Part shown: positions 16,969 through 41,725 of the stretch, piece by piece
Position numbering within the stretch: position 1 is the stretch's first letter
How the letters are laid out: each line of letters starts with the position of its first letter
Source of the DNA: Fibrobacter sp.
GTDB lineage: Bacteria > Fibrobacterota > Fibrobacteria > Fibrobacterales > Fibrobacteraceae
Assembly (NCBI RefSeq): GCF_017642335.1
Contig: NZ_JAGCPF010000038.1
Reading direction: 5' to 3' (one strand)
DNA: 64,000 nucleotides
The notes under the pieces: generated by a model
What the model was told of the DNA's origin: nothing
Database searches by the model: none
The model's input: only the letters and a program-made list of their open reading frames with translations
Position numbers and translations under genes: made by a program

Positions 16969-17814
16969 ATGAGCGAATGGACCACAGTCATCAAGCCGAA
17001 ATCGAGCCTGCTCTCGGTCGACTTCGGCGAAATCTGGCAGTACCGCGATCTGTACCGCATGTTCGTGAAGCGCGATATCGTCACGTGGTACAAACAAACT
17101 ATTCTCGGACCGCTGTGGTTCTTTATACAGCCCATCATGACGACCATCATGTTCATGGTCGTGTTCGGCGGCATCGCGAAAATCTCGACGGACGGTTTGC
17201 CGCAGCCGCTGTTCTACCTGGCGGGAATCTGCCTCTGGACCTATTTTTCGGAATGCCTGAACCAGACGAGCAAAACGTTCATCGAAAACGCGAACATGTT
17301 CGGCAAGGTGTATTTCCCGCGGCTCGTTGTGCCGCTTGCGACCGTCACGAGCAACCTCGTGCGGCTCAGCATCCAGATGGGGCTGTTTTTCCTGGTGTTC
17401 GCGTATTACCTGATATTCACCGACGCCCCGGTACACCCTAATTTGTACGCGCTGCTCACGCCGGTACTCGTACTGCTCATCGCCGCGCTCGCGCTCGGTT
17501 TCGGCGTGCTGTTCAGCAGCCTCACCACCAAGTACCGCGACCTGACATTCCTGCTGAGCTTCATCGTTCAACTCTGGATGTACGCGACCCCGGTGATTTA
17601 CCCGCTCAGCACCATCGAGGACCCGCGCCTCAAAATGCTCATGCAGGCTAACCCGCTCACCAGCATCATGGAAACGTTCAAGTTCGGGATGCTCGGGGTA
17701 GGGGAGTTCAGCTGGGCCGCCCTAGGCTACACCGCCGGCTTCGCCGCGTTCATCCTCGCGCTCGGCATCGTCGTGTTCAACAAGATCCAGCGCACCTTCA
17801 TGGATACGGTGTAG
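16969..17814 (+). CDS. wzm: Polysaccharide ABC transporter permease
   Basis: RDIVTWYKQTILGPLW, YRDL, ATPVIYP, NPLTSIME; ABC-2 membrane topology. Confidence 0.9.
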   Translation: MSEWTTVIKPKSSLLSVDFGEIWQYRDLYRMFVKRDIVTWYKQTILGPLWFFIQPIMTTIMFMVVFGGIAKISTDGLPQPLFYLAGICLWTYFSECLNQTSKTFIENANMFGKVYFPRLVVPLATVTSNLVRLSIQMGLFFLVFAYYLIFTDAPVHPNLYALLTPVLVLLIAALALGFGVLFSSLTTKYRDLTFLLSFIVQLWMYATPVIYPLSTIEDPRLKMLMQANPLTSIMETFKFGMLGVGEFSWAALGYTAGFAAFILALGIVVFNKIQRTFMDTV

Positions 17815-17817
17815 GCG

Positions 17818-18816
17818 CTACACCTTAAATCCGGCGTCCATCATGCACTTCTGAGCGAAGCAGTTCGCTTCGTCTTCCTTTTCGGGATAGTTGTGCGTGA
17901 TTTCGATGTTTTGCAAACAAATACCCTTCTTGCCGTGGTAGAGCACGTGCGCTAGTTCATGGAAGAATGTATACCACATCGTTTCGCGCTTCTTGAAGCG
18001 GTCGTGCAATTGGATTAGCGGGACATCCTTGTACCAGCGGTACATGCCGTAAACAGGGGCACTCTTGAAGTTCTGAACGAAAAGTACGCGGATTCCGATT
18101 TTGCGGCAGATTTCTTGCAGGCCGGTCATGCAGTCGTCGACCACCTCCGGCTCGGGAGTCCAATAGGTGATTTTCTTTTCTCGTTTCGGCAGCGTCTTGT
18201 TTGCTGCGGCAAAAGCGATAATTTCGGGGAGGGCCGCCTTCAGTCGCTTGCGGACGGGAATCTGCTCCTGTTTTTCCATCGGGTCGCGGTCCGAGAGAAT
18301 CTCGCCACGGCGAATCCACGCCGAAGTCGCATAAGGGTCCTTGACCTCGGCCAGCGAAATGCTGAATGCCACCTTCAGCCGGGCATTCTTATAGTAGCCG
18401 TCCCACGCCTTCGGAGACGCCACGGCAAAGAATTTCAGCAAGGGCATTAAAGATTTGCTTTCGTCTTTTTTTTCTTGTACCCATTCACGAACGTTAACTT
18501 CGTCAGGGAAGGACTTTTTCCAAAGGGACTGATCCGTCAGCGAGGCCTTGATTCTCTCGCGAGAGAGAAATTCGTCATAAGCAATCTGGCTGCGCAGCCA
18601 AAATGATGCCGGAATTTCCGTAACCATTTCTAAAGCAATAGCAACATCCGGCGTAATGCGGCAATTGCCCTGCAAAATATCATTTACCGCCTTGGGCGTG
18701 TAACCCATGCGCGCGGCCAAGTCGTTCGCGTCAAGGCCCATTTCTTCAAGTTTTTCGGCAAGATGCCGCCCAGGTGGCGTCACCACAGCCAATTCATCAC
18801 ATCTGTACACCTGCAT
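17818..18816 (-). CDS. higA: HigA-like antitoxin (HTH + ImmA/IrrE-type metallopeptidase domain)
   Basis: PPGRHLAE...LAARMG...ITPDVAIALE HTH; FFHELAHV HExxH. Confidence 0.8.
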   Translation of the reverse strand: MQVYRCDELAVVTPPGRHLAEKLEEMGLDANDLAARMGYTPKAVNDILQGNCRITPDVAIALEMVTEIPASFWLRSQIAYDEFLSRERIKASLTDQSLWKKSFPDEVNVREWVQEKKDESKSLMPLLKFFAVASPKAWDGYYKNARLKVAFSISLAEVKDPYATSAWIRRGEILSDRDPMEKQEQIPVRKRLKAALPEIIAFAAANKTLPKREKKITYWTPEPEVVDDCMTGLQEICRKIGIRVLFVQNFKSAPVYGMYRWYKDVPLIQLHDRFKKRETMWYTFFHELAHVLYHGKKGICLQNIEITHNYPEKEDEANCFAQKCMMDAGFKV

Positions 18817-19028: not shown

Positions 19029-20318
19029 TCATTTCTCAAGCAGTTCTCGCGAAATTTCTTCACGGTGGTTCTTGCGAACGCCACAGTCTTTCGCGATTTC
19101 GTCCCAGTTTGCAACGGCATTCTCGACCTGGTCAATGATTCCCGCATACTTGCGGATTCCGATGCGTTCCGCTACCGCCTTGAGATCGTCGCGCGTGATA
19201 TTTTCCTGTTTCATGTTCACGGACATCTGGTGGCGATTTACCCAGCGGCTCCTTGGGTTGTTGGCATAGCACAGGTCGTATGCGGGTGCCAATTTCCAGG
19301 TTCCGTATTCGTCCATCAGGAAAGATATGTTCTTGGTGTGGTCGTCATTGTTCTTTGCCAAAACGTTGAAAACCATGTAGCGGAACACTTCCTCGTCGGC
19401 CTTGGCGTCGAGCCCGAGTTTGCGCATAGCGGCAAAAGCGTCCTCGTAGGAATGGCGAGCGTCACGGTCCAGGTGAGTCAAGGCGGCAAGCGTCTGCATG
19501 TGCAGTTTGGAACCTTCGTCCGTGCGGTCGAAACGTCTGGTCATAAAGTGGCAACCGCTGCGATCTTCTAGAATGCGGCTTTCGCTCATGCGGATTCCGG
19601 CCCGTAGCGCCATCTTGTAGTACGCGTATTCGACGTTCCCTATCCCGCGAGGAATTTCGGTGATGCTGTCGTGTTCGCGGTAGCTTACGCCGTCGAACTT
19701 GAGCAGCCAATAGCCGAACCCTTTTGGCGCAGGAACCTGGCCACTGCGCACTTCGCCCGTAGATTCGTTGTACGCAATAATCGCCTTTGGCTTTGCTCCT
19801 CCGGCAGAAGTGCCGACTCGCAGGATGTCGTACAAAGTCTTGTCCTGCTGCACAAGTTTTTCCCTAAATTTTTTGCGGTCCCGAAAAACGCTCTCAGCCA
19901 GCTTTACGAGATCATCCACAAGTATTTCCGTGGATTCGTCAAGCCCTGGTGTCGGCAAGCTGGGCTCAAACTCCAAGGCGCCCATAGAACGCTTGCCGAC
20001 ATAGCACAGGCGTTCCAGCGGTGTCACCGTCTCTAGCGGACGGCCCATGGTCTGGAACCATTCCGAAATAATCTGGTCGCCGAACCTATCCGGGAGCGAA
20101 TCCGCAATGAGCCCGGGGAGCCCGCGAAAGCAGTCATTCCTGTTCTCGGCAAAAGAGAAAACGCCCTTCGTCACGGGCATCTTTATAGGGGATACCGGCA
20201 ACGGATTGCGGACAAAGGCTGGCTCGTATTCGAAATAGGCGATACCCCGCGACGCATCCCACGAAAGCGCACCGACAGGCGACCCCCACAAGTGCACGTT
20301 TACGACAAGTTCGCTCAT
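19029..20318 (-). CDS. hipA: HipA family kinase toxin
   Basis: HipA N-terminal coupling region, GTSAGGAKPK, NNDDHTKNISF, LAPAYD. Confidence 0.9.
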   Translation of the reverse strand: MSELVVNVHLWGSPVGALSWDASRGIAYFEYEPAFVRNPLPVSPIKMPVTKGVFSFAENRNDCFRGLPGLIADSLPDRFGDQIISEWFQTMGRPLETVTPLERLCYVGKRSMGALEFEPSLPTPGLDESTEILVDDLVKLAESVFRDRKKFREKLVQQDKTLYDILRVGTSAGGAKPKAIIAYNESTGEVRSGQVPAPKGFGYWLLKFDGVSYREHDSITEIPRGIGNVEYAYYKMALRAGIRMSESRILEDRSGCHFMTRRFDRTDEGSKLHMQTLAALTHLDRDARHSYEDAFAAMRKLGLDAKADEEVFRYMVFNVLAKNNDDHTKNISFLMDEYGTWKLAPAYDLCYANNPRSRWVNRHQMSVNMKQENITRDDLKAVAERIGIRKYAGIIDQVENAVANWDEIAKDCGVRKNHREEISRELLEK

Positions 20319-20620
20319 TTGGCCTTGCTCCGTTTGATACGCTGGATCTTGCCGTCCTGCAACCTGCGCAACAGAAGTGGGCTCACGGGAGGTTCCGGCA
20401 GGAACTGCTCTAGATTTTCGAGCAAGCCAAGAGAACGCAGCACGCTCAATAGGATTTGTACAGACACGGCACCCCCGCGTTCCATCTTGGCAATTGTGCC
20501 GACGCCAACACCGGCGGACTCCGCCAGTTCAGATTGCATCAAGCCCTTCCGCAGACGGTATTCCTTGAGTCTTGCTCCCATTTCCTTCAAAATAGAGGGT
20601 GTCGTCATTTCGTTCCACAT
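20315..20620 (-). CDS. HipB-like XRE/HTH antitoxin
   Basis: RLKEYRLRKGLMQSELAESAGVGVGTIAKMERG; overlaps the hipA start. Confidence 0.8.
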   Translation of the reverse strand: MWNEMTTPSILKEMGARLKEYRLRKGLMQSELAESAGVGVGTIAKMERGGAVSVQILLSVLRSLGLLENLEQFLPEPPVSPLLLRRLQDGKIQRIKRSKAK

Positions 20621-20785
20621 GATTATAAATATACACAATAATTATCACAAAAAGAATGATTATCGTAGAAAATGGCGATAAAAATGCTTTTTGTGATAGT
20701 TATAAACGTAATAAAAAGAGCCGGTGATGTATATTCACCGGCTCTGTTTGGTATGATAAATTTTCGGAGATGCTAATTGAATCAA

Positions 20786-22306
20786 TTAACCTATTTTTTC
20801 AATGTCAAAAATTAGATGAATTTTATCGTTCGCGGTTGACATGCCGAGGTATTCTCTAATGTTGCGATCTCCTCTGAAAACTGTTTTCTTGAAATCTTTT
20901 GTTAGAGATTTGCTGTATCCCCATCCGTTGTCCATGTCAAGGGAATACTTGAAAGAACTGATCTTGTCGGCTTGATTGTGTAAGTCAAAATCCCATATGT
21001 CAATTTCTACATCAATTTTGCTTTGGGCGTTGAGGATGTCGGAAAGGTAGAATACATTCCTACCGGGAATGTGAAGTGCGTTAATGCTGTTTCCTTCGTA
21101 AATGATGTCAAATTCCTTGCCCCCGTGTTTTCTTACGCTTGGTTTTGGCCAGCGATCCGCATCGACGATGGTTTTGCCATCTTGCTTTATGGTTATCGTG
21201 AGGAATAATTCGGCATCTATATTCTTTTTGCCGTCGTTGATTTTGCGTGCTTGTGCGACGTGCTTTAGGATAAATTTAATCTTAGAATATCCTTCTGCGG
21301 AACCATCTTTATTTTCTATGATAACGCCGCCTTCGAATTCCTGATAGGTAATGCCGGACGGTGATTCGCTTATGGGACCAATAGGTTTCTTGTAAACGCT
21401 ATTAACTCCGCCTTTGCTTATGTAGTATTTGTAGATGGCGTCGTCACGTGCGCTTAGTGGTTCGTCTCCGAAAACCGGAGCAGTGTCGTTTTCTGGATAA
21501 CATGCGTCGTCTTGATCATAATCTACGAGTCGCCCGTTCTCGCTTGTAGTTATTACTTCATGTCTTGAGTAGGCTACCAGATCTGGGAGGGATACAAGAT
21601 TGTCGCCGTTGGTATCTGCGGCACGATTCTGATTGCAGTTGTTTTCCCAGTCCCACCCGCAGCCTTTAGCCCAATGCTTCGTGAATCTATTGCCGGTTGA
21701 ATTACCCCATGCACTTTCGGCTGCTTGACAAGCTGTGATTACTTTGAAGTCGTCATCTCGTAGGGCGCCTTTCTTAGCTGTTGCGGCTCTTTTAGCTGTT
21801 GCTGCTCTTGCGCGAGGCTTGAATGCGGAAATGATGGATCGATTGAACGCCTTTAGATCGTCTCTGGTAGTGTTGATTTTTTTTCTGAGAGTACTTCTTG
21901 GAGTGATGCTTGCTCCAGAATGGCAGGACTCGATAAGTAGTACTTTGATTCCTGGTATTTCGTCCAAAATATCTCGCAAGTCTACAAAAGAAAGAAAGCC
22001 AGTCTCTTCGCCATTCATGTATAGCCACAGACCATCTGTTGATCCATGACAGTTGATGTAAATATAACTGTATGTTGCATCAGTTGCGTCTTTAAATGTT
22101 TCTTCGATGGTGCTTTTGAGCACGTCTAGAGTTGCGTTATGAATGCTGGTCGGCGTGATGCAGTTCCGTTTAAACATGTTCTCCATGATTCTTCTGTTCG
22201 CTGCACGACGAGTGTGCTCTCTTGTTAAAGTATCAATTCTTTCTTGATTGCTTTTTGCTGAAGAGATTTCGTCAGAAGCCGTGATGATTAAGCCTTTGTT
22301 GTTCAT
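20786..22306 (-). CDS. Caspase-like (peptidase C14 clan CD) protein with an LGFP-like repeat and C-terminal beta domain
   Basis: INCHG and IESCHSG catalytic-like motifs, VITAC; DTNGDNLVS EF-hand-like loop; QEFEGGVI LGFP-like segment. Confidence 0.6.
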   Translation of the reverse strand: MNNKGLIITASDEISSAKSNQERIDTLTREHTRRAANRRIMENMFKRNCITPTSIHNATLDVLKSTIEETFKDATDATYSYIYINCHGSTDGLWLYMNGEETGFLSFVDLRDILDEIPGIKVLLIESCHSGASITPRSTLRKKINTTRDDLKAFNRSIISAFKPRARAATAKRAATAKKGALRDDDFKVITACQAAESAWGNSTGNRFTKHWAKGCGWDWENNCNQNRAADTNGDNLVSLPDLVAYSRHEVITTSENGRLVDYDQDDACYPENDTAPVFGDEPLSARDDAIYKYYISKGGVNSVYKKPIGPISESPSGITYQEFEGGVIIENKDGSAEGYSKIKFILKHVAQARKINDGKKNIDAELFLTITIKQDGKTIVDADRWPKPSVRKHGGKEFDIIYEGNSINALHIPGRNVFYLSDILNAQSKIDVEIDIWDFDLHNQADKISSFKYSLDMDNGWGYSKSLTKDFKKTVFRGDRNIREYLGMSTANDKIHLIFDIEKIG

Positions 22307-22594
22307 AAAATGATGGATTCCTTCTTAGGTGAGTCTGTTTGTATTAAATAAATTATTTTAAATAACTTATTTTTATATTATATAACTTATTTTTATTTGT
22401 TGCGAAATGGATTGTATGAAAAAAAAATAATACAAAGAAAATGCTTTTGTTTTGAACAAAAGAGCGTATACAAACAAATTTATGTAAATTAAAAATTTTC
22501 TAAAAAACGCCAATAGTGCGCGATTTTCAATCGTAAATCAATAAACCCCTCTATTTCGAGGGGTTTAACCCAAAAAGGGTCGAATTCGCCCCCT

Positions 22595-23905
22595 TTAAAG
22601 GAACATCACAAAGTATATCGGCAAATATAAGACAGAGCCTTTTTGCAACACTTTGGAATTATTGGACAGCACAATCCCTTTTGCGTTTTCGTTCGCTTTG
22701 AGCAAGTTGTCGATAGCGCTATGAATCCTATAATCCCTGCCGGACTTTACCTCTATCGGGACAACGGATAACGAATCAAAGTCGTCTATCAAGAAGTCCA
22801 CTTCGCCCTTATGCCGATTATCGTAATAAAAAAGCTTCTTCCCGTGTGCCTTCAGTTCCTGCGCAACGACGGTTTCATAAACCGCCCCAAGATTAATGCT
22901 GGGAACATCGTCCAGCACCGCAGAAATATTCGGGCCATACAACACGCCAGTAAGGATGCCGACGTCATTAAGATACAGTTTCAACAGGTTCTTGGTCGAA
23001 GACTCGATCAAGGGAAACTTGACATCCGTTATTGCAGAAACTTCAAGCGCAACACCAGCATTCGTCAAGTACTCAAATTCATCCTGATAACTTGACAATC
23101 TGGCCGATTTCTTGGATTCTATTTTATTTGCGACAATCCTCTTTTTCTTGTTTTCCATCATCGATGGAATCATGTCGTAAATTTTCCGGATTTTTAATTT
23201 GTTCCGAGCATCATGCTTACTGGCGTCGATGGCGTAGAATTCCTTTATGTCGCTCTGTATCTTGCGGACCTTGACGATGTTTGATTCCTGGATGAACATG
23301 TTCACGGCATCGGGCATGCCGCCAACCAGCAGGTACTTTTTGAACATGTCCATCATCTTGGCATGCATCGATTCGTCAAGTCCCATTTTGCCGAGATACC
23401 TGTTCCTGATTCCCTGAATGGAGAATTCGTTGAATCCGTTCGCCCAAAGGAACTCCTCGAAATCCAGCGGATACATATGTTCCGTCTCAATGCTGCCAAT
23501 TGGAATGGAAGACGTCTTTGCCAGGGCGATGCCCAAACGCGAACTGCTGGCAATATACGTAAAGCGGTCGCCCTGTTTCAAGAATTTGAGCAAAGTCAGC
23601 AAGTGGGGATATTCCTGGATTTCATCAAGAAAGACCAGCGTGTCCTTGGCGTTCCCCATCTTGTTGCCTGCAAACATGCTCAAGCGCAAGTAGAAATCGT
23701 CAACATTCTTGACATCGGCAAACAAATGACTGCCGATCGAATCTTCCCAAAGGTTAACCTCGATATAGTTCTTGAAATGCTTTTGCCCCATATGGCGGAT
23801 AATGAAAGACTTGCCAATCTGCCGTGCGCCATCAATTAGCAGAATCTTGTTGGATCCCGCCGTGAAATACTCTTCCAAACGTTTTTGAATTTTTCGGTAT
23901 AGCAT
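22595..23905 (-). CDS. AAA_14 / DUF4143 ATP-binding protein
   Basis: GARQIGKS Walker A, FLDEIQ Walker B, EVDF...IEVKSG. Confidence 0.85.
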   Translation of the reverse strand: MLYRKIQKRLEEYFTAGSNKILLIDGARQIGKSFIIRHMGQKHFKNYIEVNLWEDSIGSHLFADVKNVDDFYLRLSMFAGNKMGNAKDTLVFLDEIQEYPHLLTLLKFLKQGDRFTYIASSSRLGIALAKTSSIPIGSIETEHMYPLDFEEFLWANGFNEFSIQGIRNRYLGKMGLDESMHAKMMDMFKKYLLVGGMPDAVNMFIQESNIVKVRKIQSDIKEFYAIDASKHDARNKLKIRKIYDMIPSMMENKKKRIVANKIESKKSARLSSYQDEFEYLTNAGVALEVSAITDVKFPLIESSTKNLLKLYLNDVGILTGVLYGPNISAVLDDVPSINLGAVYETVVAQELKAHGKKLFYYDNRHKGEVDFLIDDFDSLSVVPIEVKSGRDYRIHSAIDNLLKANENAKGIVLSNNSKVLQKGSVLYLPIYFVMFL

Positions 23906-24002
23906 TTTTCAATCACTTTTTATGCTAAAAATATACACTTTTCAATCACTTTTAGCAATACTTTTTGACACTTTTCAATAAAAGACTAAGTTCTTTATTT
24001 TG

Positions 24003-24102
24003 CGAAAAAACGCCAATAGTGCGCGATATTTCAAAAAAAATGAGCGAATTCTCAAGGAATTTCACCTTTTTACACCGCGACTTTGAACACGATGCCGCCC
24101 GT
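24003..24102. repeat. Copy 2 of the brnA-3'/promoter repeat (other copies at 22505-22530 and 25432-25590)
   Basis: ccaatagtgcgc...ggaatttcacctttttacaccgcgactttgaacacgatgccgcccgt is near-identical to 25432-25524. Confidence 0.9.
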
Positions 24103-24127
24103 AATGTCAATTTTAAGGGACTTCAAT

Positions 24128-25315
24128 CTACAGTTCGTTCATTGCCACTAGATTTCTAAACTGAATGTGTCGAACCGTGCTGGTGGAATAGTCGATTTCG
24201 TCGTTTGATATGACAATCTTTTGGATGGAATTGTCGAACCTGTTGAACGCCCCAAACTCCCGTTCATAAGCCTTCTCCTCGGCAACGGAATACGCCGCTT
24301 GGATATAAAAGGTTTTGCCGCCCTTGTTGGCTATAAAATCAATTTCGTGTTTGCCATCGTTAAAAACTTGAACATCGTACCCCATATAAACAAGCTCATT
24401 ATAGACAACATTCTCAAAATTATGAGTCAAGTCAAAGCGGTTATTGTATGCACGAATCGAGTTGAACGAAACATCCTCATTGTACATCTTGTAGTAGTAA
24501 CTCAACTCCCGTTTTGCCTTGGTAGAAAACAGCCTAACCGGTTGAACAACATAGGCTTCTTCCAAGTAACCGAGATACTTTATGATAGTAGTGACAGTGC
24601 ACTTAAACGAGTTCGTTTTCATATAGTCAGCAACAGAGCGTGCCGAAAAAATACGGGCGTTCGACACTAGCACATAATTTACCAACCTAGTAAAAATTTC
24701 AGTCCGTCTGATCTTGTAGCGGGAAATGATATCGTTGAGGACTATGGTATCGTTAATTTCGTTCAAATATTTCTTTTGGCTTTCTATGTCGCCATACTCA
24801 ACACGTTTCGGAAAACCTCCCCATATGATGTAATCCGTCAGGTTCATCGACCTGCCCAACTGCGTCGCATATTCAAGCAGTTCCCTATACACAAAAGGGC
24901 GAACCCTGAACGACACATACCGTCCGGACAGTTCCTTGGTAAATTCTCGCGACAAAAGTTTGGAATTGGACCCGCTGATGAATACGGAACAGTTGCGAAC
25001 GCGGAGTGTGCGACAAGCAGCGGCCCAATCTTCTACGCGCTGAACCTCATCTAGAAAAACATAGCACAGTTGGTCCTTGCCCGGCCGGTTTTTGTCAACG
25101 TACTCCAAGAGTTTCATTGCATTAGGCACAGTCGCCAACACTGCAGCATCTTCGAAATCCAATGAGACAACATTGCCTGAACGTTCCTTGATCTCTTTGT
25201 GTATATCAGCCAAAATGACCGACTTGCCACAGCGTCGGATTCCAGTAATCACCTTTATCAGGTCGGAATCGTAAAAAGCCCTTATGGGAGCAATGTAGCG
25301 TTCTCTGAATATCAT
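24128..25315 (-). CDS. AAA_14 / DUF4143 ATP-binding protein
   Basis: GIRRCGKS, FLDEVQ, SGSNSKLL, EIDFIA; start placed at MIFRERY. Confidence 0.85.
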   Translation of the reverse strand: MIFRERYIAPIRAFYDSDLIKVITGIRRCGKSVILADIHKEIKERSGNVVSLDFEDAAVLATVPNAMKLLEYVDKNRPGKDQLCYVFLDEVQRVEDWAAACRTLRVRNCSVFISGSNSKLLSREFTKELSGRYVSFRVRPFVYRELLEYATQLGRSMNLTDYIIWGGFPKRVEYGDIESQKKYLNEINDTIVLNDIISRYKIRRTEIFTRLVNYVLVSNARIFSARSVADYMKTNSFKCTVTTIIKYLGYLEEAYVVQPVRLFSTKAKRELSYYYKMYNEDVSFNSIRAYNNRFDLTHNFENVVYNELVYMGYDVQVFNDGKHEIDFIANKGGKTFYIQAAYSVAEEKAYEREFGAFNRFDNSIQKIVISNDEIDYSTSTVRHIQFRNLVAMNEL

Positions 25316-25333
25316 AAACACCTCGCTGCTCAA

Positions 25334-25416
25334 TTTCTACTAGACAATTTAATCATTTTTACAAAAATTGTCTAGTAGAAATAGACAATTTCATTTAATT
25401 TTATGAAATTGTCCAG
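25334..25416. promoter_or_regulatory. Inverted-repeat operator-like boxes upstream of the AAA ATPase
   Basis: tttctactagacaattt (25334-25350) / aaattgtctagtagaaa (25365-25381) perfect 17-bp IR, plus a second weaker pair. Confidence 0.5.
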
Positions 25417-25491
25417 TAAATTTGTGAAAAATCACCAATAGTGCGCAATATTTCTAAAAAAATGGGCGATTTTTCAAGGAATTTCACCTTT

Positions 25492-25587
25492 TTACACCGC
25501 GACTTTGAACACGATGCCGCCCGTCACGTAACGGTGGATGATAGAATTGATGAGCGTCTGGTAAGGCATGCCCGCGGCCTTCGCCAT
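25492..25587 (-). pseudogene. C-terminal remnant of a BrnA/CopG-like antitoxin
   Basis: MAKAAGMPYQTLINSIIHRYVTGGIVFKVAV*; in-frame stop 3 codons upstream. Confidence 0.65.
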
Positions 25588-25641
25588 TTTCAGTTAGTAA
25601 GGATTCCTTACATACCTTTTTCCGCAATTTGCTCCATATGG

Positions 25642-25672
25642 AGTGGTAGTTTCCATTTTGGAAACTACCACT
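25642..25672. terminator. Hairpin, candidate intrinsic terminator
   Basis: agtggtagtttcc / ggaaactaccact 13-bp stem followed by a T run. Confidence 0.55.
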
Positions 25673-25781
25673 TTTTCAAAAATATCAGCAAGCGATATTG
25701 CCTAAGACTTGTGAGTTCTGGGGCGCTCAGCCACGACCAGAACGAGCCGGATTCCTAAAATAGGGATAAAGGGACATCCCA

Positions 25782-26438
25782 TTACTTTCTATTTTTTTCT
25801 TTGACTTGCCGGTCTATGGACTTTACGAATGCGAGAGCCTTCTCAATATAGTCCTTCACATCCTGCTCTTTAATCGGAATCTTTTCTGCTGAATTCGGCC
25901 GACGGTCAGACTGATGCGCAATCTGGTTCCTGCGACGGTAAAGCCCATCGATAAATGATTTCTGTTTAGAATCGGCTTTGAGTCCAACTATTCCCAAATT
26001 CATCTGCATATGCTCAAATCCGAGAAAACAATTTTCCCGGTTCACCGAGTCGATCTCTTCACCAAGCAACGATTCTGCATTTTCGGGGGTTCTGTATAAT
26101 TTTAGCATTACTGGGAATGAAACCTTAAACTTCTTGCTCTTATCCGTCTCAGGCCACTCCCCATTGAAAATCTTCAGAAGACCATATTTTACCAGTTCAT
26201 GAATGTAAAAATCCAAAGCGCTTTCGAGAAAGACAACCTGGCTGCGCCATATCTCTTCTGCAGACCGAAGATCGGCCTTGAGTTCATTCTGCGCAAGACC
26301 AAATTTGTCCTTCACGTCCTTCAAATTTTCATCGAAATGCTTCCGAACATCGCTTATCGTTATTGGCGAGCGAATCGAGTTTTTAGGACGGACATTTTCA
26401 ATCCGGGAAGTTTCGTCAACAAAACGTCTCATTATCAC
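25782..26438 (-). CDS. HEPN-domain protein (putative RNase)
   Basis: RRNQIAH Rx4H motif near the C-terminus; FLESALDFYIHE helix; coupled to the upstream ATPase. Confidence 0.7.
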   Translation of the reverse strand: MIMRRFVDETSRIENVRPKNSIRSPITISDVRKHFDENLKDVKDKFGLAQNELKADLRSAEEIWRSQVVFLESALDFYIHELVKYGLLKIFNGEWPETDKSKKFKVSFPVMLKLYRTPENAESLLGEEIDSVNRENCFLGFEHMQMNLGIVGLKADSKQKSFIDGLYRRRNQIAHQSDRRPNSAEKIPIKEQDVKDYIEKALAFVKSIDRQVKEKNRK

Positions 26439-27646
26439 TTCTCACGGAAATTACTGTTCAACATAGGAATAGCGCCGTATCGTCCCAAAATATATCCCTT
26501 CTTGATGTTTTCATCCTTGCGAACATTCTTAAGTTCCGCAAGCGAATACAAATCCGTTGATCGCGTCTTTGGATTAAGTTCGGTAAACCAAATCTGATCA
26601 CGACGCACCTCGTTCAAGTCTAATAAATCGGAATCATGAGTTGCGGTAATAAGCTGGCTGCTAGAATCCCTATTTTGACAAAAACGTTTGATTATTTCAG
26701 CAACTATCGAGGGGTGCAAATGCGCTTCAATCTCATCACAAACAAGCACTCTATTATTTGTTAGTACATCCATCATTGGGCATATGAATTGGAATAATTT
26801 TTTGACACCCGAAGATTCCTCTCTATAATCCACCTCAAAATTTTTGTACACCAACTTCAACTCATACCCAATTGTATTCTGCATCATTTGCGGAGTCGTT
26901 GTTATTGAAACAGCATCATCAACTAAAATTTGCTGTCCATCTTTAATTTTTATATCAACTAAATCGCACCCTATACTTCTCATAAATCTGAGAAATTTTG
27001 CCTTCATCTGGGGACTATTCTTAAGCTGGTGCATGGAATAATTAAACAAGGATTCACTTTCTCTAAAAAACAAAAGATTTTCCAAAAAGAACATAAAAGC
27101 CGCAGAAACTTGAGGAATGTCGGTCTCGTTGGCAGCACATGAGAGGAGCAACTTATTTGGTTTTATACGCCCCTTACAATTATCACCCGCCTTCTTGAAG
27201 GAATCGGCAAATTGATAGTCCATAAATGACGTTCTCTCGAAAATCACGGCCCTCTTCACTCCTGGCCAATAATGAAGATATTCATCCACGATGCCATCTT
27301 CGTTATAACTAAACCCATAAGAATACTTCACACCATTCTTTTCAAAAATTACCGCAAATAAGGTCGGTTCCTTCTTCTTTGAAAGTTTATGCGGATACCT
27401 CAAAATCGGAAAGCCCGGTTGGACGGTATTACTAGTCAGCACAATTCTATACATAAGCAACAGGGCGTCCAGCAGAGACGTCTTACCAGATCCATTCGCT
27501 CCATACACTTCAGCCACTCGCAAATAACGTCCTTTACCAAAAGATATGAGAGAACCTTTGATGCTATCATCTTTAGATGCAGCCATGGAAAAAACGACTG
27601 GTTCCTTAATGGAACGATAATTTGAACAGGTAAACTGAATGAGCAT
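26435..27646 (-). CDS. AAA_21 (ABC-type) ATPase, abortive-infection type
   Basis: YGANGSGKT, ESSGVKK signature, CDEIEAHLHP, ATHD, GRYGAIP. Confidence 0.85.
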   Translation of the reverse strand: MLIQFTCSNYRSIKEPVVFSMAASKDDSIKGSLISFGKGRYLRVAEVYGANGSGKTSLLDALLLMYRIVLTSNTVQPGFPILRYPHKLSKKKEPTLFAVIFEKNGVKYSYGFSYNEDGIVDEYLHYWPGVKRAVIFERTSFMDYQFADSFKKAGDNCKGRIKPNKLLLSCAANETDIPQVSAAFMFFLENLLFFRESESLFNYSMHQLKNSPQMKAKFLRFMRSIGCDLVDIKIKDGQQILVDDAVSITTTPQMMQNTIGYELKLVYKNFEVDYREESSGVKKLFQFICPMMDVLTNNRVLVCDEIEAHLHPSIVAEIIKRFCQNRDSSSQLITATHDSDLLDLNEVRRDQIWFTELNPKTRSTDLYSLAELKNVRKDENIKKGYILGRYGAIPMLNSNFREK

Positions 27647-27791
27647 AATTCGCCTTCTGTGTTTTGTTTCCAAGGGAAAATATAGCCTATTTTTTGCAAA
27701 ATAGCAAATATTTTTATCATTTTTGCAGATTTTTCACAAAAACCAGCATTATTTTCCAAAGTTTTAAACTAATCAACAACATATAACGCCC

Positions 27792-27876
27792 ATTATAAGG
27801 GACCTGCCGGAGCAGCGAAAAATGCGCGTTTTTCGCGCAATTTTTTTGAATCGGCTTCTCGGCTGTCCCTTATAAT
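27792..27876. mobile_element. 85-bp MITE-like element with terminal inverted repeats
   Basis: attataagggac / gtcccttataat perfect 12-bp TIR extending imperfectly to ~23 bp; inner gcgaaaaa/tttttcgc palindrome; right 69 bp repeated at 30682-30750. Confidence 0.5.
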
Positions 27877-27906
27877 CTATATTGCTTACATACAATGACC
27901 GCCATT
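27877..27906 (+). pseudogene. wzt stub A: promoter box plus first ~4 codons (ATGACCGCCATT)
   Basis: Upstream 69 bp match stub B at 67/69; MTAI matches the wzt start; sequence then runs into REP-like DNA. Confidence 0.55.
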
Positions 27907-40459: not shown

Positions 40460-41725
40460 ATGATAGCCATCGAGTTCGAGAACATCAGCAAGCAGTACCG
40501 ACTGGGGCTAGTGAGCACCGGGACGCTCAGCCACGACCTGAACAGGTTCTGGCAGACTAAGGTGCTGCGCCGCGAGGACCCCTACCTCAAGGTGGGCGAA
40601 GTCAACGACCGCGCGCACAAGGGCGCAAGCGAGTACGTGTGGGCCCTCAAGGACATCAACTTCAAGGTGGAACAGGGCGACGTCGTGGGAATCATCGGGC
40701 GTAACGGCGCCGGCAAGAGCACCCTCCTCAAGCTGCTGAGCCGCGTGACCGCTCCCACCACCGGCACCATCCGCGCACGGGGCCGCATCGCGAGCCTCCT
40801 CGAAGTGGGCACCGGGTTCCACCCGGAGATGACCGGGCGCGAGAACATCTACATGAACGGCGCCATCATGGGCATGAGCCGCGCGGAGATTACCCGCAAG
40901 CTCGATGAAATCGTGGACTTCAGCGGCTGCGAACGCTACCTGGACACCCCCGTGAAACGCTACAGCAGCGGCATGACCGTACGCCTCGGATTCGCCATCG
41001 CAGCACACTTGGAACCCGAAATCCTCGTGGTGGACGAAGTGCTGGCCGTGGGCGACGCCGAATTCCAAAAGAAGGCCATCGGCAAGATGCAGGACGTAAG
41101 CCGCGGCGAAGGCAGAACCGTGCTGTTCGTGAGCCATAATATGGGCGCGGTGAAGAATTTGTGTAAGCGCGGAATTGTGCTGAATCAGGGACAAGTGACG
41201 TTTGATGGAGCGGCAGACAATGCCGTAAATTTTTATACAGGAAGTTATCGCTTATCAGAAGAAGACGAACTAATCAATCGGGTAACAAAAACGGCAAAAG
41301 GCATTTCAATAAAGCATTTCTCTTTTAACGGCTCAACATCTAGTCAAACAACTATCACAAATGGACAAAAATCCATTGAGGTCTGCATTGAGGGTTATAC
41401 TAGCAGCCCTCTTTCTAAAGTTGACATCAGATTGACTATAAAAAATTCTTTGGGAACACCACTAGCAACTCTTGCAGAAGGACACTATAAAAATAGCACT
41501 CAGGATTTTGATATCGGAGATTTCTCGATAAAGAAAGAATTCATTTTGCCCAAATATCTTTCACAAGGGCTTTGCATTGTCGACATCTATTTGCACAAGC
41601 CAAACGTCATGTACTATATGGAAGCCCCCAATTGTGCAACAATAGACATTAACGGAAATAGCGAACGATTCGGACAGGCCCTTTTATTAAACAGGGATGG
41701 CTTTTTCGGATTTGAAACGAAATAA
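40460..41725 (+). CDS. wzt: Polysaccharide ABC transporter ATP-binding protein with Wzt_C domain (intact copy)
   Basis: GRNGAGKST, YSSGM, VVDEVLAVGD, VSHN, plus a C-terminal extension. Confidence 0.95.
   Translation: MIAIEFENISKQYRLGLVSTGTLSHDLNRFWQTKVLRREDPYLKVGEVNDRAHKGASEYVWALKDINFKVEQGDVVGIIGRNGAGKSTLLKLLSRVTAPTTGTIRARGRIASLLEVGTGFHPEMTGRENIYMNGAIMGMSRAEITRKLDEIVDFSGCERYLDTPVKRYSSGMTVRLGFAIAAHLEPEILVVDEVLAVGDAEFQKKAIGKMQDVSRGEGRTVLFVSHNMGAVKNLCKRGIVLNQGQVTFDGAADNAVNFYTGSYRLSEEDELINRVTKTAKGISIKHFSFNGSTSSQTTITNGQKSIEVCIEGYTSSPLSKVDIRLTIKNSLGTPLATLAEGHYKNSTQDFDIGDFSIKKEFILPKYLSQGLCIVDIYLHKPNVMYYMEAPNCATIDINGNSERFGQALLLNRDGFFGFETK

Follow-up and report, generated by a model that had tools for sequence, protein, structure and literature searches.

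Landmark copies and cargo genes in the wzm-wzt island

The 64,000-nucleotide (nt) stretch that was analyzed as a whole here (the window) belongs to contig NZ_JAGCPF010000038.1 of a rumen Fibrobacter assembly (3.77 Mb in 73 contigs, 94.5% complete), and it contains the variable island that Fibrobacter has between wzm and wzt, two glycan-export genes. Within this island lie three copies, A, B and C, of a repeat which in its longest form comprises the 3' end of a brnA-like antitoxin gene together with a short spacer, and each copy stands upstream of a different cargo, namely the ATPase genes ATPase1 and ATPase2 and a gene for a 506-amino-acid (aa) protein. On the minus strand, the order is AbiLi-like ATPase, RiboL-PSP HEPN gene, copy A, ATPase1, copy B, ATPase2, two hairpins, copy C, 506-aa gene, hipB-hipA, HTH/M78 gene and then the convergent 3' end of wzm (Table 1). 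The repeats are scars and not a mobile element, and the best reading of their arrangement, to which we assign a probability of about 0.65, is serial displacement, a strain-to-strain exchange with one homologous side and one illegitimate end.

The 12-mer CCAATAGTGCGC occurs on the plus strand at 22510, 24013 and 25435, against a chance expectation of 0.26 matches in the window, and three or more matches were reached in 0 of 100 shuffles. The whole 3.77-Mb assembly yielded no further copy, even with the degenerate pattern GCGYAYTATTG, and a genome search with the whole of copy A returned the three sites and weak matches to other antitoxin genes. The three copies of the original prediction thus exist, and the objection that they might belong to a dispersed repeat is rejected, since the repeat is confined to these three sites. 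A second brnA-like locus on contig 29 was dismissed, its similarity being weak and unrelated.

The reading frame of copy A runs from an ATG at 25587 to a TAA at 25492-25494, and its peptide is identical to the C-terminus of the intact 95-97-aa antitoxins in relatives, as expected from the claim that A holds 31 antitoxin codons and B about 10; the frame of B agrees as well. At the nucleotide level, copy A is 96-97% identical to G010 and G012, two of the 100 other Fibrobacter species genomes that we compared (G codes; L codes denote loci, including metagenome contigs), over 171-180 nt. Copies A and B are direct repeats with a period of 1422 nt and agree at 96 of 104 positions (92.3%; eight differences), while copy C is 91% identical to B and 78% to A. 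The similarity of A and B stops at a single point (25420 and 23998, respectively), and that of C stops within a few bases of it. A and B therefore share the cargo-side end and differ in length at the other (31 and 10 codons), as 3' fragments of one anchor in a displacement array do, and copy C adds only its last 32 nt to this nested series. The same array, with the same eight A/B differences, was found in five independent metagenome assemblies at 98-100% identity, which indicates that it is real and no assembly artefact, and that it is older than a strain divergence of about 2%.

Both ATPases match the PADLOC profile PDC-S01 over its full length (ATPase2, E = 9.5e-171, residues 1-436; ATPase1, E = 5.8e-112, residues 1-390). 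PDC-S01 is a candidate defence family, and the cargos are accordingly called defence-type in this provisional sense. ATPase1 and ATPase2 are only 23% identical to each other over 188 aa, and each has orthologues with 94-98% identity in other species and in other contexts. In the third cargo, a caspase-like gene had been predicted, and here the signals stayed below threshold: the 506-aa protein gave E = 0.011 for CHAT and E = 0.03 for Peptidase_C13, both below the cut-off, and 15.8 bits for caspase_w_EACC1 (cut-off 140), so that it does not qualify as a member of clan CD, and no relative was found in the PDB. A caspase- or legumain-like resemblance is nevertheless plausible, because three distant homologues carry PF01650 or PF00656. 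The assignment of one cargo to each copy thus stands for the two AAA ATPases and is tentative for the third gene.

Table 1. Coordinates of the landmark copies, joints, cargo modules and island genes in the window
Feature	Position	Strand	Description
Copy A	25421-25591	-	last 31 codons of CopG/BrnA-like antitoxin and 71-nt spacer ending in box GCGCACTATTGG
Copy B	23999-24102	-	last 10 brnA codons, stop 24070-24072, same 71-nt spacer with box
Copy C	22496-22527	-	32-nt stub: box GCGCACTATTGG and flanks, zero codons
Joint J1	25582-25615	-	piece of rhuM-type gene fused to brnA codon -31
Joint J2	24103-24124		22-nt filler between ATPase1 module and brnA codon -10
Hairpin remnant	25633-25680	-	hairpin that follows ATPase2 in species with ATPase2 upstream of brnT-brnA
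ATPase1 module	24125-25420	-	own palindromic boxes, promoter-like sites and coding sequence
ATPase1 coding sequence	24128-25315	-	AAA_14 and DUF4143; PADLOC PDC-S01
ATPase2 module	22569-23984	-	three ATTGAAAAGTG boxes, promoter-like site 23958-23930, coding sequence, terminator hairpin
ATPase2 coding sequence	22595-23905	-	AAA_14 and DUF4143; PADLOC PDC-S01
Second hairpin	22542-22567	-	terminator-like palindrome
506-aa gene module	20715-22495	-	100-nt leader, coding sequence 20786-22306, terminator hairpin
AbiLi-like AAA_21 ATPase	26435-27673	-	left neighbour; matches AbiLi
RiboL-PSP HEPN gene	25782-26438	-	left neighbour
hipB-hipA	19029-20638	-	right-hand context
HTH/M78 gene	17818-18816	-	right-hand context
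wzm 3' end	16969-17814	+	bounds island on right, convergent with minus-strand genes
Intact wzt	40460-41725		other border of island

Intact antitoxin loci, joints and allele lineages

The 3' end of brnA was matched in 36 of the 100 other genomes. At many relatives' loci, a 102-aa gene is followed, with overlap, by a 95-97-aa antitoxin gene, giving an intact brnT-brnA-like pair, and in several species this pair lies between wzm and wzt. The original prediction had proposed to look for such an intact locus in other strains, and many Fibrobacter species indeed have it. What follows it varies greatly: at 28 loci, the genes immediately downstream of brnA form 18 clusters, which include ATPase2, another AAA_14 ATPase, the 3' end of wzm and a glycosyltransferase. 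ATPase2 stands directly behind the intact anchor in G012, G077, L141, L146, L149 and L159, ATPase1 was seen behind the 31-codon stub only, and the 506-aa gene was not observed directly behind brnA in any examined locus. An intact 95-aa orthologue (L025:1313-1600) scored 30.6 bits with PF12441 CopG_antitoxin (cut-off 28) and belongs to that family, but its 20.4 bits with PF14384 BrnA_antitoxin are below the cut-off of 26.1 that strict BrnA membership requires. The overlapping 102-aa gene upstream matched no Pfam or NCBIfam model, where DUF497 is expected for BrnT. Since the antitoxin falls short of PF14384 and its partner lacks a model match, "brnA-like" denotes resemblance here, not membership. 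In the short brnA allele of G091 (L048), the third codon is changed from AAA to the stop TAA, so that the allele is probably a pseudogene.

We next consider the two joints at which the landmark was cut. At J1, the piece of the rhuM-type gene is exact and about 24-25 nt long (25592-25615), the junction shows the microhomology AAATG with 8 of 10 bases alike, and the window sequence 25615-25585 is 96.8% identical to the inside of rhuM in G024. The same joint was found, identical, in G010 and in the metagenome loci L128, L130, L144, L147 and L148. Elsewhere, the gene after J1 is ATPase2, an ATPase2 with an internal deletion, or ATPase3 (a third ATPase gene, described below), and AbiEi/Eii or AbiLi-HEPN comes before the joint; in total, J1 has been joined on its right to four different cargos and on its left to two or more contexts. 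One old and unique joint with several partners on each side demands homologous crossovers within the landmark of about 200 nt. The hairpin remnant nearby is 88-91% identical to the 3' flank of ATPase2 in G092, G002 and G084. J2 is of another kind; the mapping of junction microhomologies, which had been suggested, yielded AAATG at J1 and instead the 22-nt filler at J2, where the homology of ATPase1 to its orthologues stops 3 nt past the stop codon, without an inverted repeat.

The spacer of A and B (type 1) was found only in G010, G012, G091 and some metagenome contigs, and the brnA spacer of other species differs from it and carries a TTGACA-17 nt-TATATT site. The box GCGCACTATTGG with its flanks is homologous to the first of three boxes, spaced by 34 nt, that precede ATPase3, a gene 96-97% identical among G024, G085, G058 and metagenome locus L148. 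L148 has the order AbiLi-HEPN, J1, 31-codon stub, type-1 spacer, three boxes and ATPase3, and its AbiLi-HEPN pair shares 96% protein identity with that of the window. This order, together with the box homology, shows the type-1 spacer to be composite: a short 3' flank of brnA, followed by the beginning of the control region of ATPase3. The remainder of that region has been replaced in each case by another gene, namely ATPase1, ATPase2 or the ATPase of G091. The original prediction had called copy C and its counterparts in A and B a promoter part. This was not borne out: the shared part gave no sigma-70-like promoter match, and the number of matches over the whole region was not above that of shuffles.

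The metagenome contig L159 carries an intact 95-aa brnA, a two-box spacer, ATPase2, both hairpins, copy C and the 506-aa gene, and is 94.3% identical to the window over 20637-24102. To judge from this sequence, L159 represents a precursor-type locus, the state before the arrival of ATPase1. Copy B carries the diagnostic bases of L159 and differs from it by the loss of one 34-nt box unit, and the left-hand bases of copy A are those of the J1 lineage. B is thus the remnant of a resident brnA of the L159 type and A entered with ATPase1 from a J1-type allele, which makes A and B two alleles of one landmark. Together with the low identity of the two ATPases, these separate lineages bear out the claim that different cargos were stacked. 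The apparently reciprocal pattern of single-nucleotide polymorphisms between A and B had first been read as a Campbell-type single crossover of a circular donor; this was dropped as no longer needed, not as refuted, because L159 shows that the left-hand bases of B belong to the intact-brnA lineage. The second box of L159 (L159:2030-2170) combines an op2-type 5' flank with an op1-type 3' flank, as would be expected from a crossover within the 12-nt box.

Copy C behaves differently. Copy C, the 100-nt leader and the 506-aa gene form a conserved block that the window shares with L159, L161 and L167. In a lineage at 81% identity in the 506-aa protein, the corresponding position is occupied by a degenerate box, and G061 has none. 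In G024, the complete three-box region of ATPase3 comes after a deleted ATPase2. Copy C would then be an old stub with a single box, now moving together with the 506-aa gene, and it may have originated from a brnA-adjacent spacer or from another ATPase3-type promoter. Since C is stable with the 506-aa gene in four sources and a diverged lineage, its descent from a brnA flank is unproven, and the claim that the copies derive from a brnA-like 3' end is secured for A and B only.

The locus also loses pieces. In G010 (L045:14941-15112), which is the closest structural relative (the metagenome-assembled genome Fibrobacter sp. UBA7003), and in L144, the hairpin region of ATPase2 is joined to the second half of the 506-aa gene terminator, a deletion scar from which it follows that these lineages once had the 506-aa gene. 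Furthermore, an internal deletion of ATPase2 (23884 to 23043) with the same two break points is present in at least five other species (G010, G002, G024, G017 and G004). Deletion scars and stacking together indicate that the island both grows and decays, with pieces spreading by recombination. That G010 arose from the window directly, through a deletion by recombination between A and B, was not supported, as the spacer of G010 is the common ATPase2-linked allele and the ATPase2 deletion is found in four other species too.

Several observations concern the cargo genes and their surroundings. Each AAA_14/DUF4143 ATPase gene is preceded by its own set of repeats: two TAGACAATTT-type palindromes before ATPase1 (25338-25418), three ATTGAAAAGTG boxes before ATPase2 (23903-23984) and three GCGCACTATTG boxes, 34 nt apart, before ATPase3 (L053:9486-9565). 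Such distinct sets suggest gene-specific autoregulation. The hairpin at 22542-22567 is AAACCCCTCGAAATAGAGGGGTTT, which occurs on both strands in many Fibrobacter genomes as a dispersed palindromic terminator-like element. More than 5000 proteins are related to ATPase1 at E <= 1e-100, and proteins named from Saccharibacteria, Clostridia, Blautia and Fibrobacterales are about 70-79% identical to it; this breadth points to a very wide horizontal spread of the family. In the metagenome contigs L169-L176, an NYN-domain gene and ATPase1 are bracketed by two copies of an EamA-containing small gene pair, which looks like another landmark duplication around a cargo. Beyond the AbiLi-HEPN pair to the left lie a wzt 5' stub, HEC-01A/B and a TIR gene, and two small remnants of the wzt start and its upstream region (25673-25743 and 27793-27905), 77-95% identical to the window's own wzt starts, are found among the defence genes. 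L178 and L179 are 98% identical to the window over the array and 75% over the 5' part of the AbiLi-like gene (27123-27807), a step that reads as a sharp recombination mosaic within this putative defence gene.

Serial displacement as the probable explanation, and its competitors

Serial displacement would account for these features as follows. The wzm-wzt gap usually contains a brnT-brnA-like pair, and the defence-type genes immediately after brnA are exchangeable: strains would swap them when allelic versions of the locus recombine, in most cases as clean replacements. Occasionally, one incoming end would join illegitimately within the resident brnA or its downstream spacer, by homology-facilitated illegitimate recombination ("displacement"), so that the incoming cargo, bringing its own landmark copy, would land before the resident cargo and reduce the resident landmark to a 3' piece. 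In the window, the resident series of brnA, spacer, ATPase2, copy C and 506-aa gene would have been cut at brnA codon -10 (J2) by a segment consisting of J1, the 31-codon stub, the spacer and ATPase1, the stub having formed earlier in the donor lineage through the illegitimate joint J1. The common 3' end of the copies would be the border of the variable cargo, just past the first operator-like box of a displaced ATPase3. Directly observed are the homology and the allele lineages of A and B, the precursor-type locus with its intact anchor, J1 with its changing partners, the anatomy of both joints and the lack of a recombinase gene, whereas the sequence of events, the way in which DNA entered and the site of the homologous crossover are inferred.

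The setting agrees with exchange of this kind. No integrase or transposase family was matched by any open reading frame (ORF) of at least 150 aa at 17.8-40.4 kb, between wzm and wzt, and the gene content between these two genes differs among G003, G010, G067, G092 and the window, as in a hotspot of the minimal-mobile-element type. The original prediction had considered the accretion to be probably homology-driven. This is right for the exchange inside the landmark, as seen from J1 with its four cargos, but the variable ends are illegitimate joints.

A number of points weigh against serial displacement. An intact anchor at the head of the series, a mark of arrays of the Rhs, CDI and T6SS type, is lacking: copy A itself is truncated at J1 and has no brnT, and no intact anchor is present in the genome, although one heads the shorter array of L159. 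A donor with intact brnA directly followed by ATPase1 was not found among the Fibrobacter genomes and metagenome loci searched, and a source of the J2 filler is absent from 101 Fibrobacter genomes at up to three mismatches. Natural transformation is undocumented here; a ComEC homologue is present, but this family is nearly universal. Copy C may never have stood next to brnA. Moreover, the ATPase1 module ends identically in the window, G007/G064 and G017, despite three upstream and three downstream flanks, and for four cargos, ATPase1, ATPase2, the ATPase of G091 and the leader of the 506-aa gene, the joint lies no more than about 15 nt past the first box. Such constant module ends in varied contexts are not what random illegitimate joining would predict.

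An unlikely alternative, although the strongest of those considered, is that the shared segment is a functional operator or leader of each downstream gene, and that it recurs through selection and not through the history of insertion. The 12-nt box is indeed invariant in A, B, C and most relatives while the flanking bases vary, and it is commoner in the genus than its reversed control; the triple box before ATPase3 recurs in four contexts at its 34-nt spacing, with the middle box overlapping a TTGCGC-17 nt-TATATT promoter-like site. However, an orthologue of ATPase3 is missing from the present genome, where the best match reaches 44% identity, and every cargo comes with a promoter-like site of its own, located beyond the shared segment along with a distinct set of repeated boxes. 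The brnA codons of A and B cannot be regulatory, and in L144 the 31-codon stub even contains a stop codon. The spacer gave no meaningful Rfam match and no common fold that would point to an RNA element. Regulation thus explains why the box was retained and not where the copies came from, and is compatible with serial displacement.

It is improbable, but by the constant ends of ATPase1 and the clustered joints kept alive, that the ATPase genes are discrete cassettes, which a dedicated site-directed mechanism targets to the spacer after the first operator-like box, leaving the stubs as by-products. In line with this, a sister lineage of ATPase1 (58-60% identical) has its start, in several contexts, within a few bases of its first palindrome, identity within the ATPase1 family is about 70% between phyla, and DUF4143 is a member of the PD-(D/E)XK nuclease superfamily (PMC3424549). 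Against it stand an island that lacks integrase, transposase and att-like repeats, unequal stub lengths (31, 10 and 0 codons), and a filler and a microhomology that are typical of illegitimate joining. Other break points are seen in G078, G095 and L159, whose stubs have two boxes, and the sharp ends of the ATPase2 module turned out to be partly an artefact of using the window's own joint as the sole comparison.

A more specific form of targeting, to which we give slightly less credence still, is that PDC-S01 ATPase cassettes with their own triple operator would insert preferentially between the first and second box of a resident paralogue; a break or stall caused by bound protein could direct this, perhaps through the gene's own PD-(D/E)XK domain. 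If true, defence genes would displace one another gene for gene in a new, targeted way, and the brnA and operator stubs would be the footprints of this process. In situ tandem duplication of one brnA-ATPase unit followed by divergence, which the direct repeats and their period might suggest, has very little probability left and is refuted by ATPases far more diverged than the 92% identical repeats, by their close orthologues in foreign contexts, and by the separate lineages of A (J1) and B (L159).

Relation to known displacement and cassette systems

Serial displacement is not new in kind, as the pattern is known from toxin loci of other bacteria. A model in which one end recombines by homology and the opposite end joins illegitimately was proposed for the orphan immunity arrays of the Vibrio cholerae type VI secretion system (T6SS) by Kirchberger et al. 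(2017) and for Rhs loci (PMC5361080), a paper that also cites Rhs C-terminal displacement and the orphan cdiA-CT/cdiI modules of contact-dependent inhibition (CDI). As in the case of these arrays, new cargo would enter the Fibrobacter locus at the place right after a conserved anchor and move the older cargo further down; the latter retains a 3' fragment of the anchor with a common cargo-side end, and no recombinase is involved. In the T6SS, Rhs and CDI loci, however, the anchor is the constant part of the cargo's own toxin gene, whereas in Fibrobacter an unrelated antitoxin gene serves as the anchor, together with the leader of an ATPase gene that was displaced; each cargo is a defence-type gene that stands alone and has its own promoter, and the anchor at the head is truncated. 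For these reasons, the Fibrobacter stubs cannot re-activate orphans as Rhs and CDI stubs can.

The underlying process, homology-facilitated illegitimate recombination, is described in de Vries and Wackernagel 2002, Prudhomme et al. 2002 and Meier and Wackernagel 2003, as cited in PMC5361080, and for conjugation in E. coli (PMC3240628). It shares with our locus one homologous anchor, one illegitimate joint with microhomology or filler, and the gain of foreign DNA beside the anchor; it was measured in the laboratory, while the Fibrobacter case is read from scars alone. The locus also resembles integron arrays in that unrelated, promoter-proximal genes follow one another in a single direction, with a recurring sequence between them. 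Unlike integrons, it has no intI, attI or attC, and no integrase family was found among the island ORFs; its recurring sequence includes dead coding sequence of varying length, and its cassettes have their own promoters, ATPase1 ending just past its stop codon without a recombination site. Finally, Neisseria minimal mobile elements, as they are cited in PMC1538595 and PMC3082526, are likewise whole-gene cassettes that vary between constant flanking genes by homologous exchange and without mobility genes. In those citations they are clean replacements, and the Fibrobacter locus additionally accumulates cassettes and nested landmark remnants.

Gene gain and loss in defence islands without a nearby integrase or transposase is still largely inferred, and this locus offers a readable record of it. 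Its dead landmark pieces would tell how whole defence-type genes are stacked by failed allelic replacement between strains, and J1 with its several partners indicates that a landmark of about 200 nt suffices for further homologous shuffling. Nearly every intermediate is represented in the comparison set, where L159 stands for the intact precursor type, L148 for a sister allele carrying a different cargo, and G010 and L144 for derivatives from which pieces have gone, and this makes the displacement model testable on population data. What is new is that the displacement pattern of Rhs, CDI and T6SS loci would extend to an ordinary toxin-antitoxin landmark in a rumen fibre degrader.

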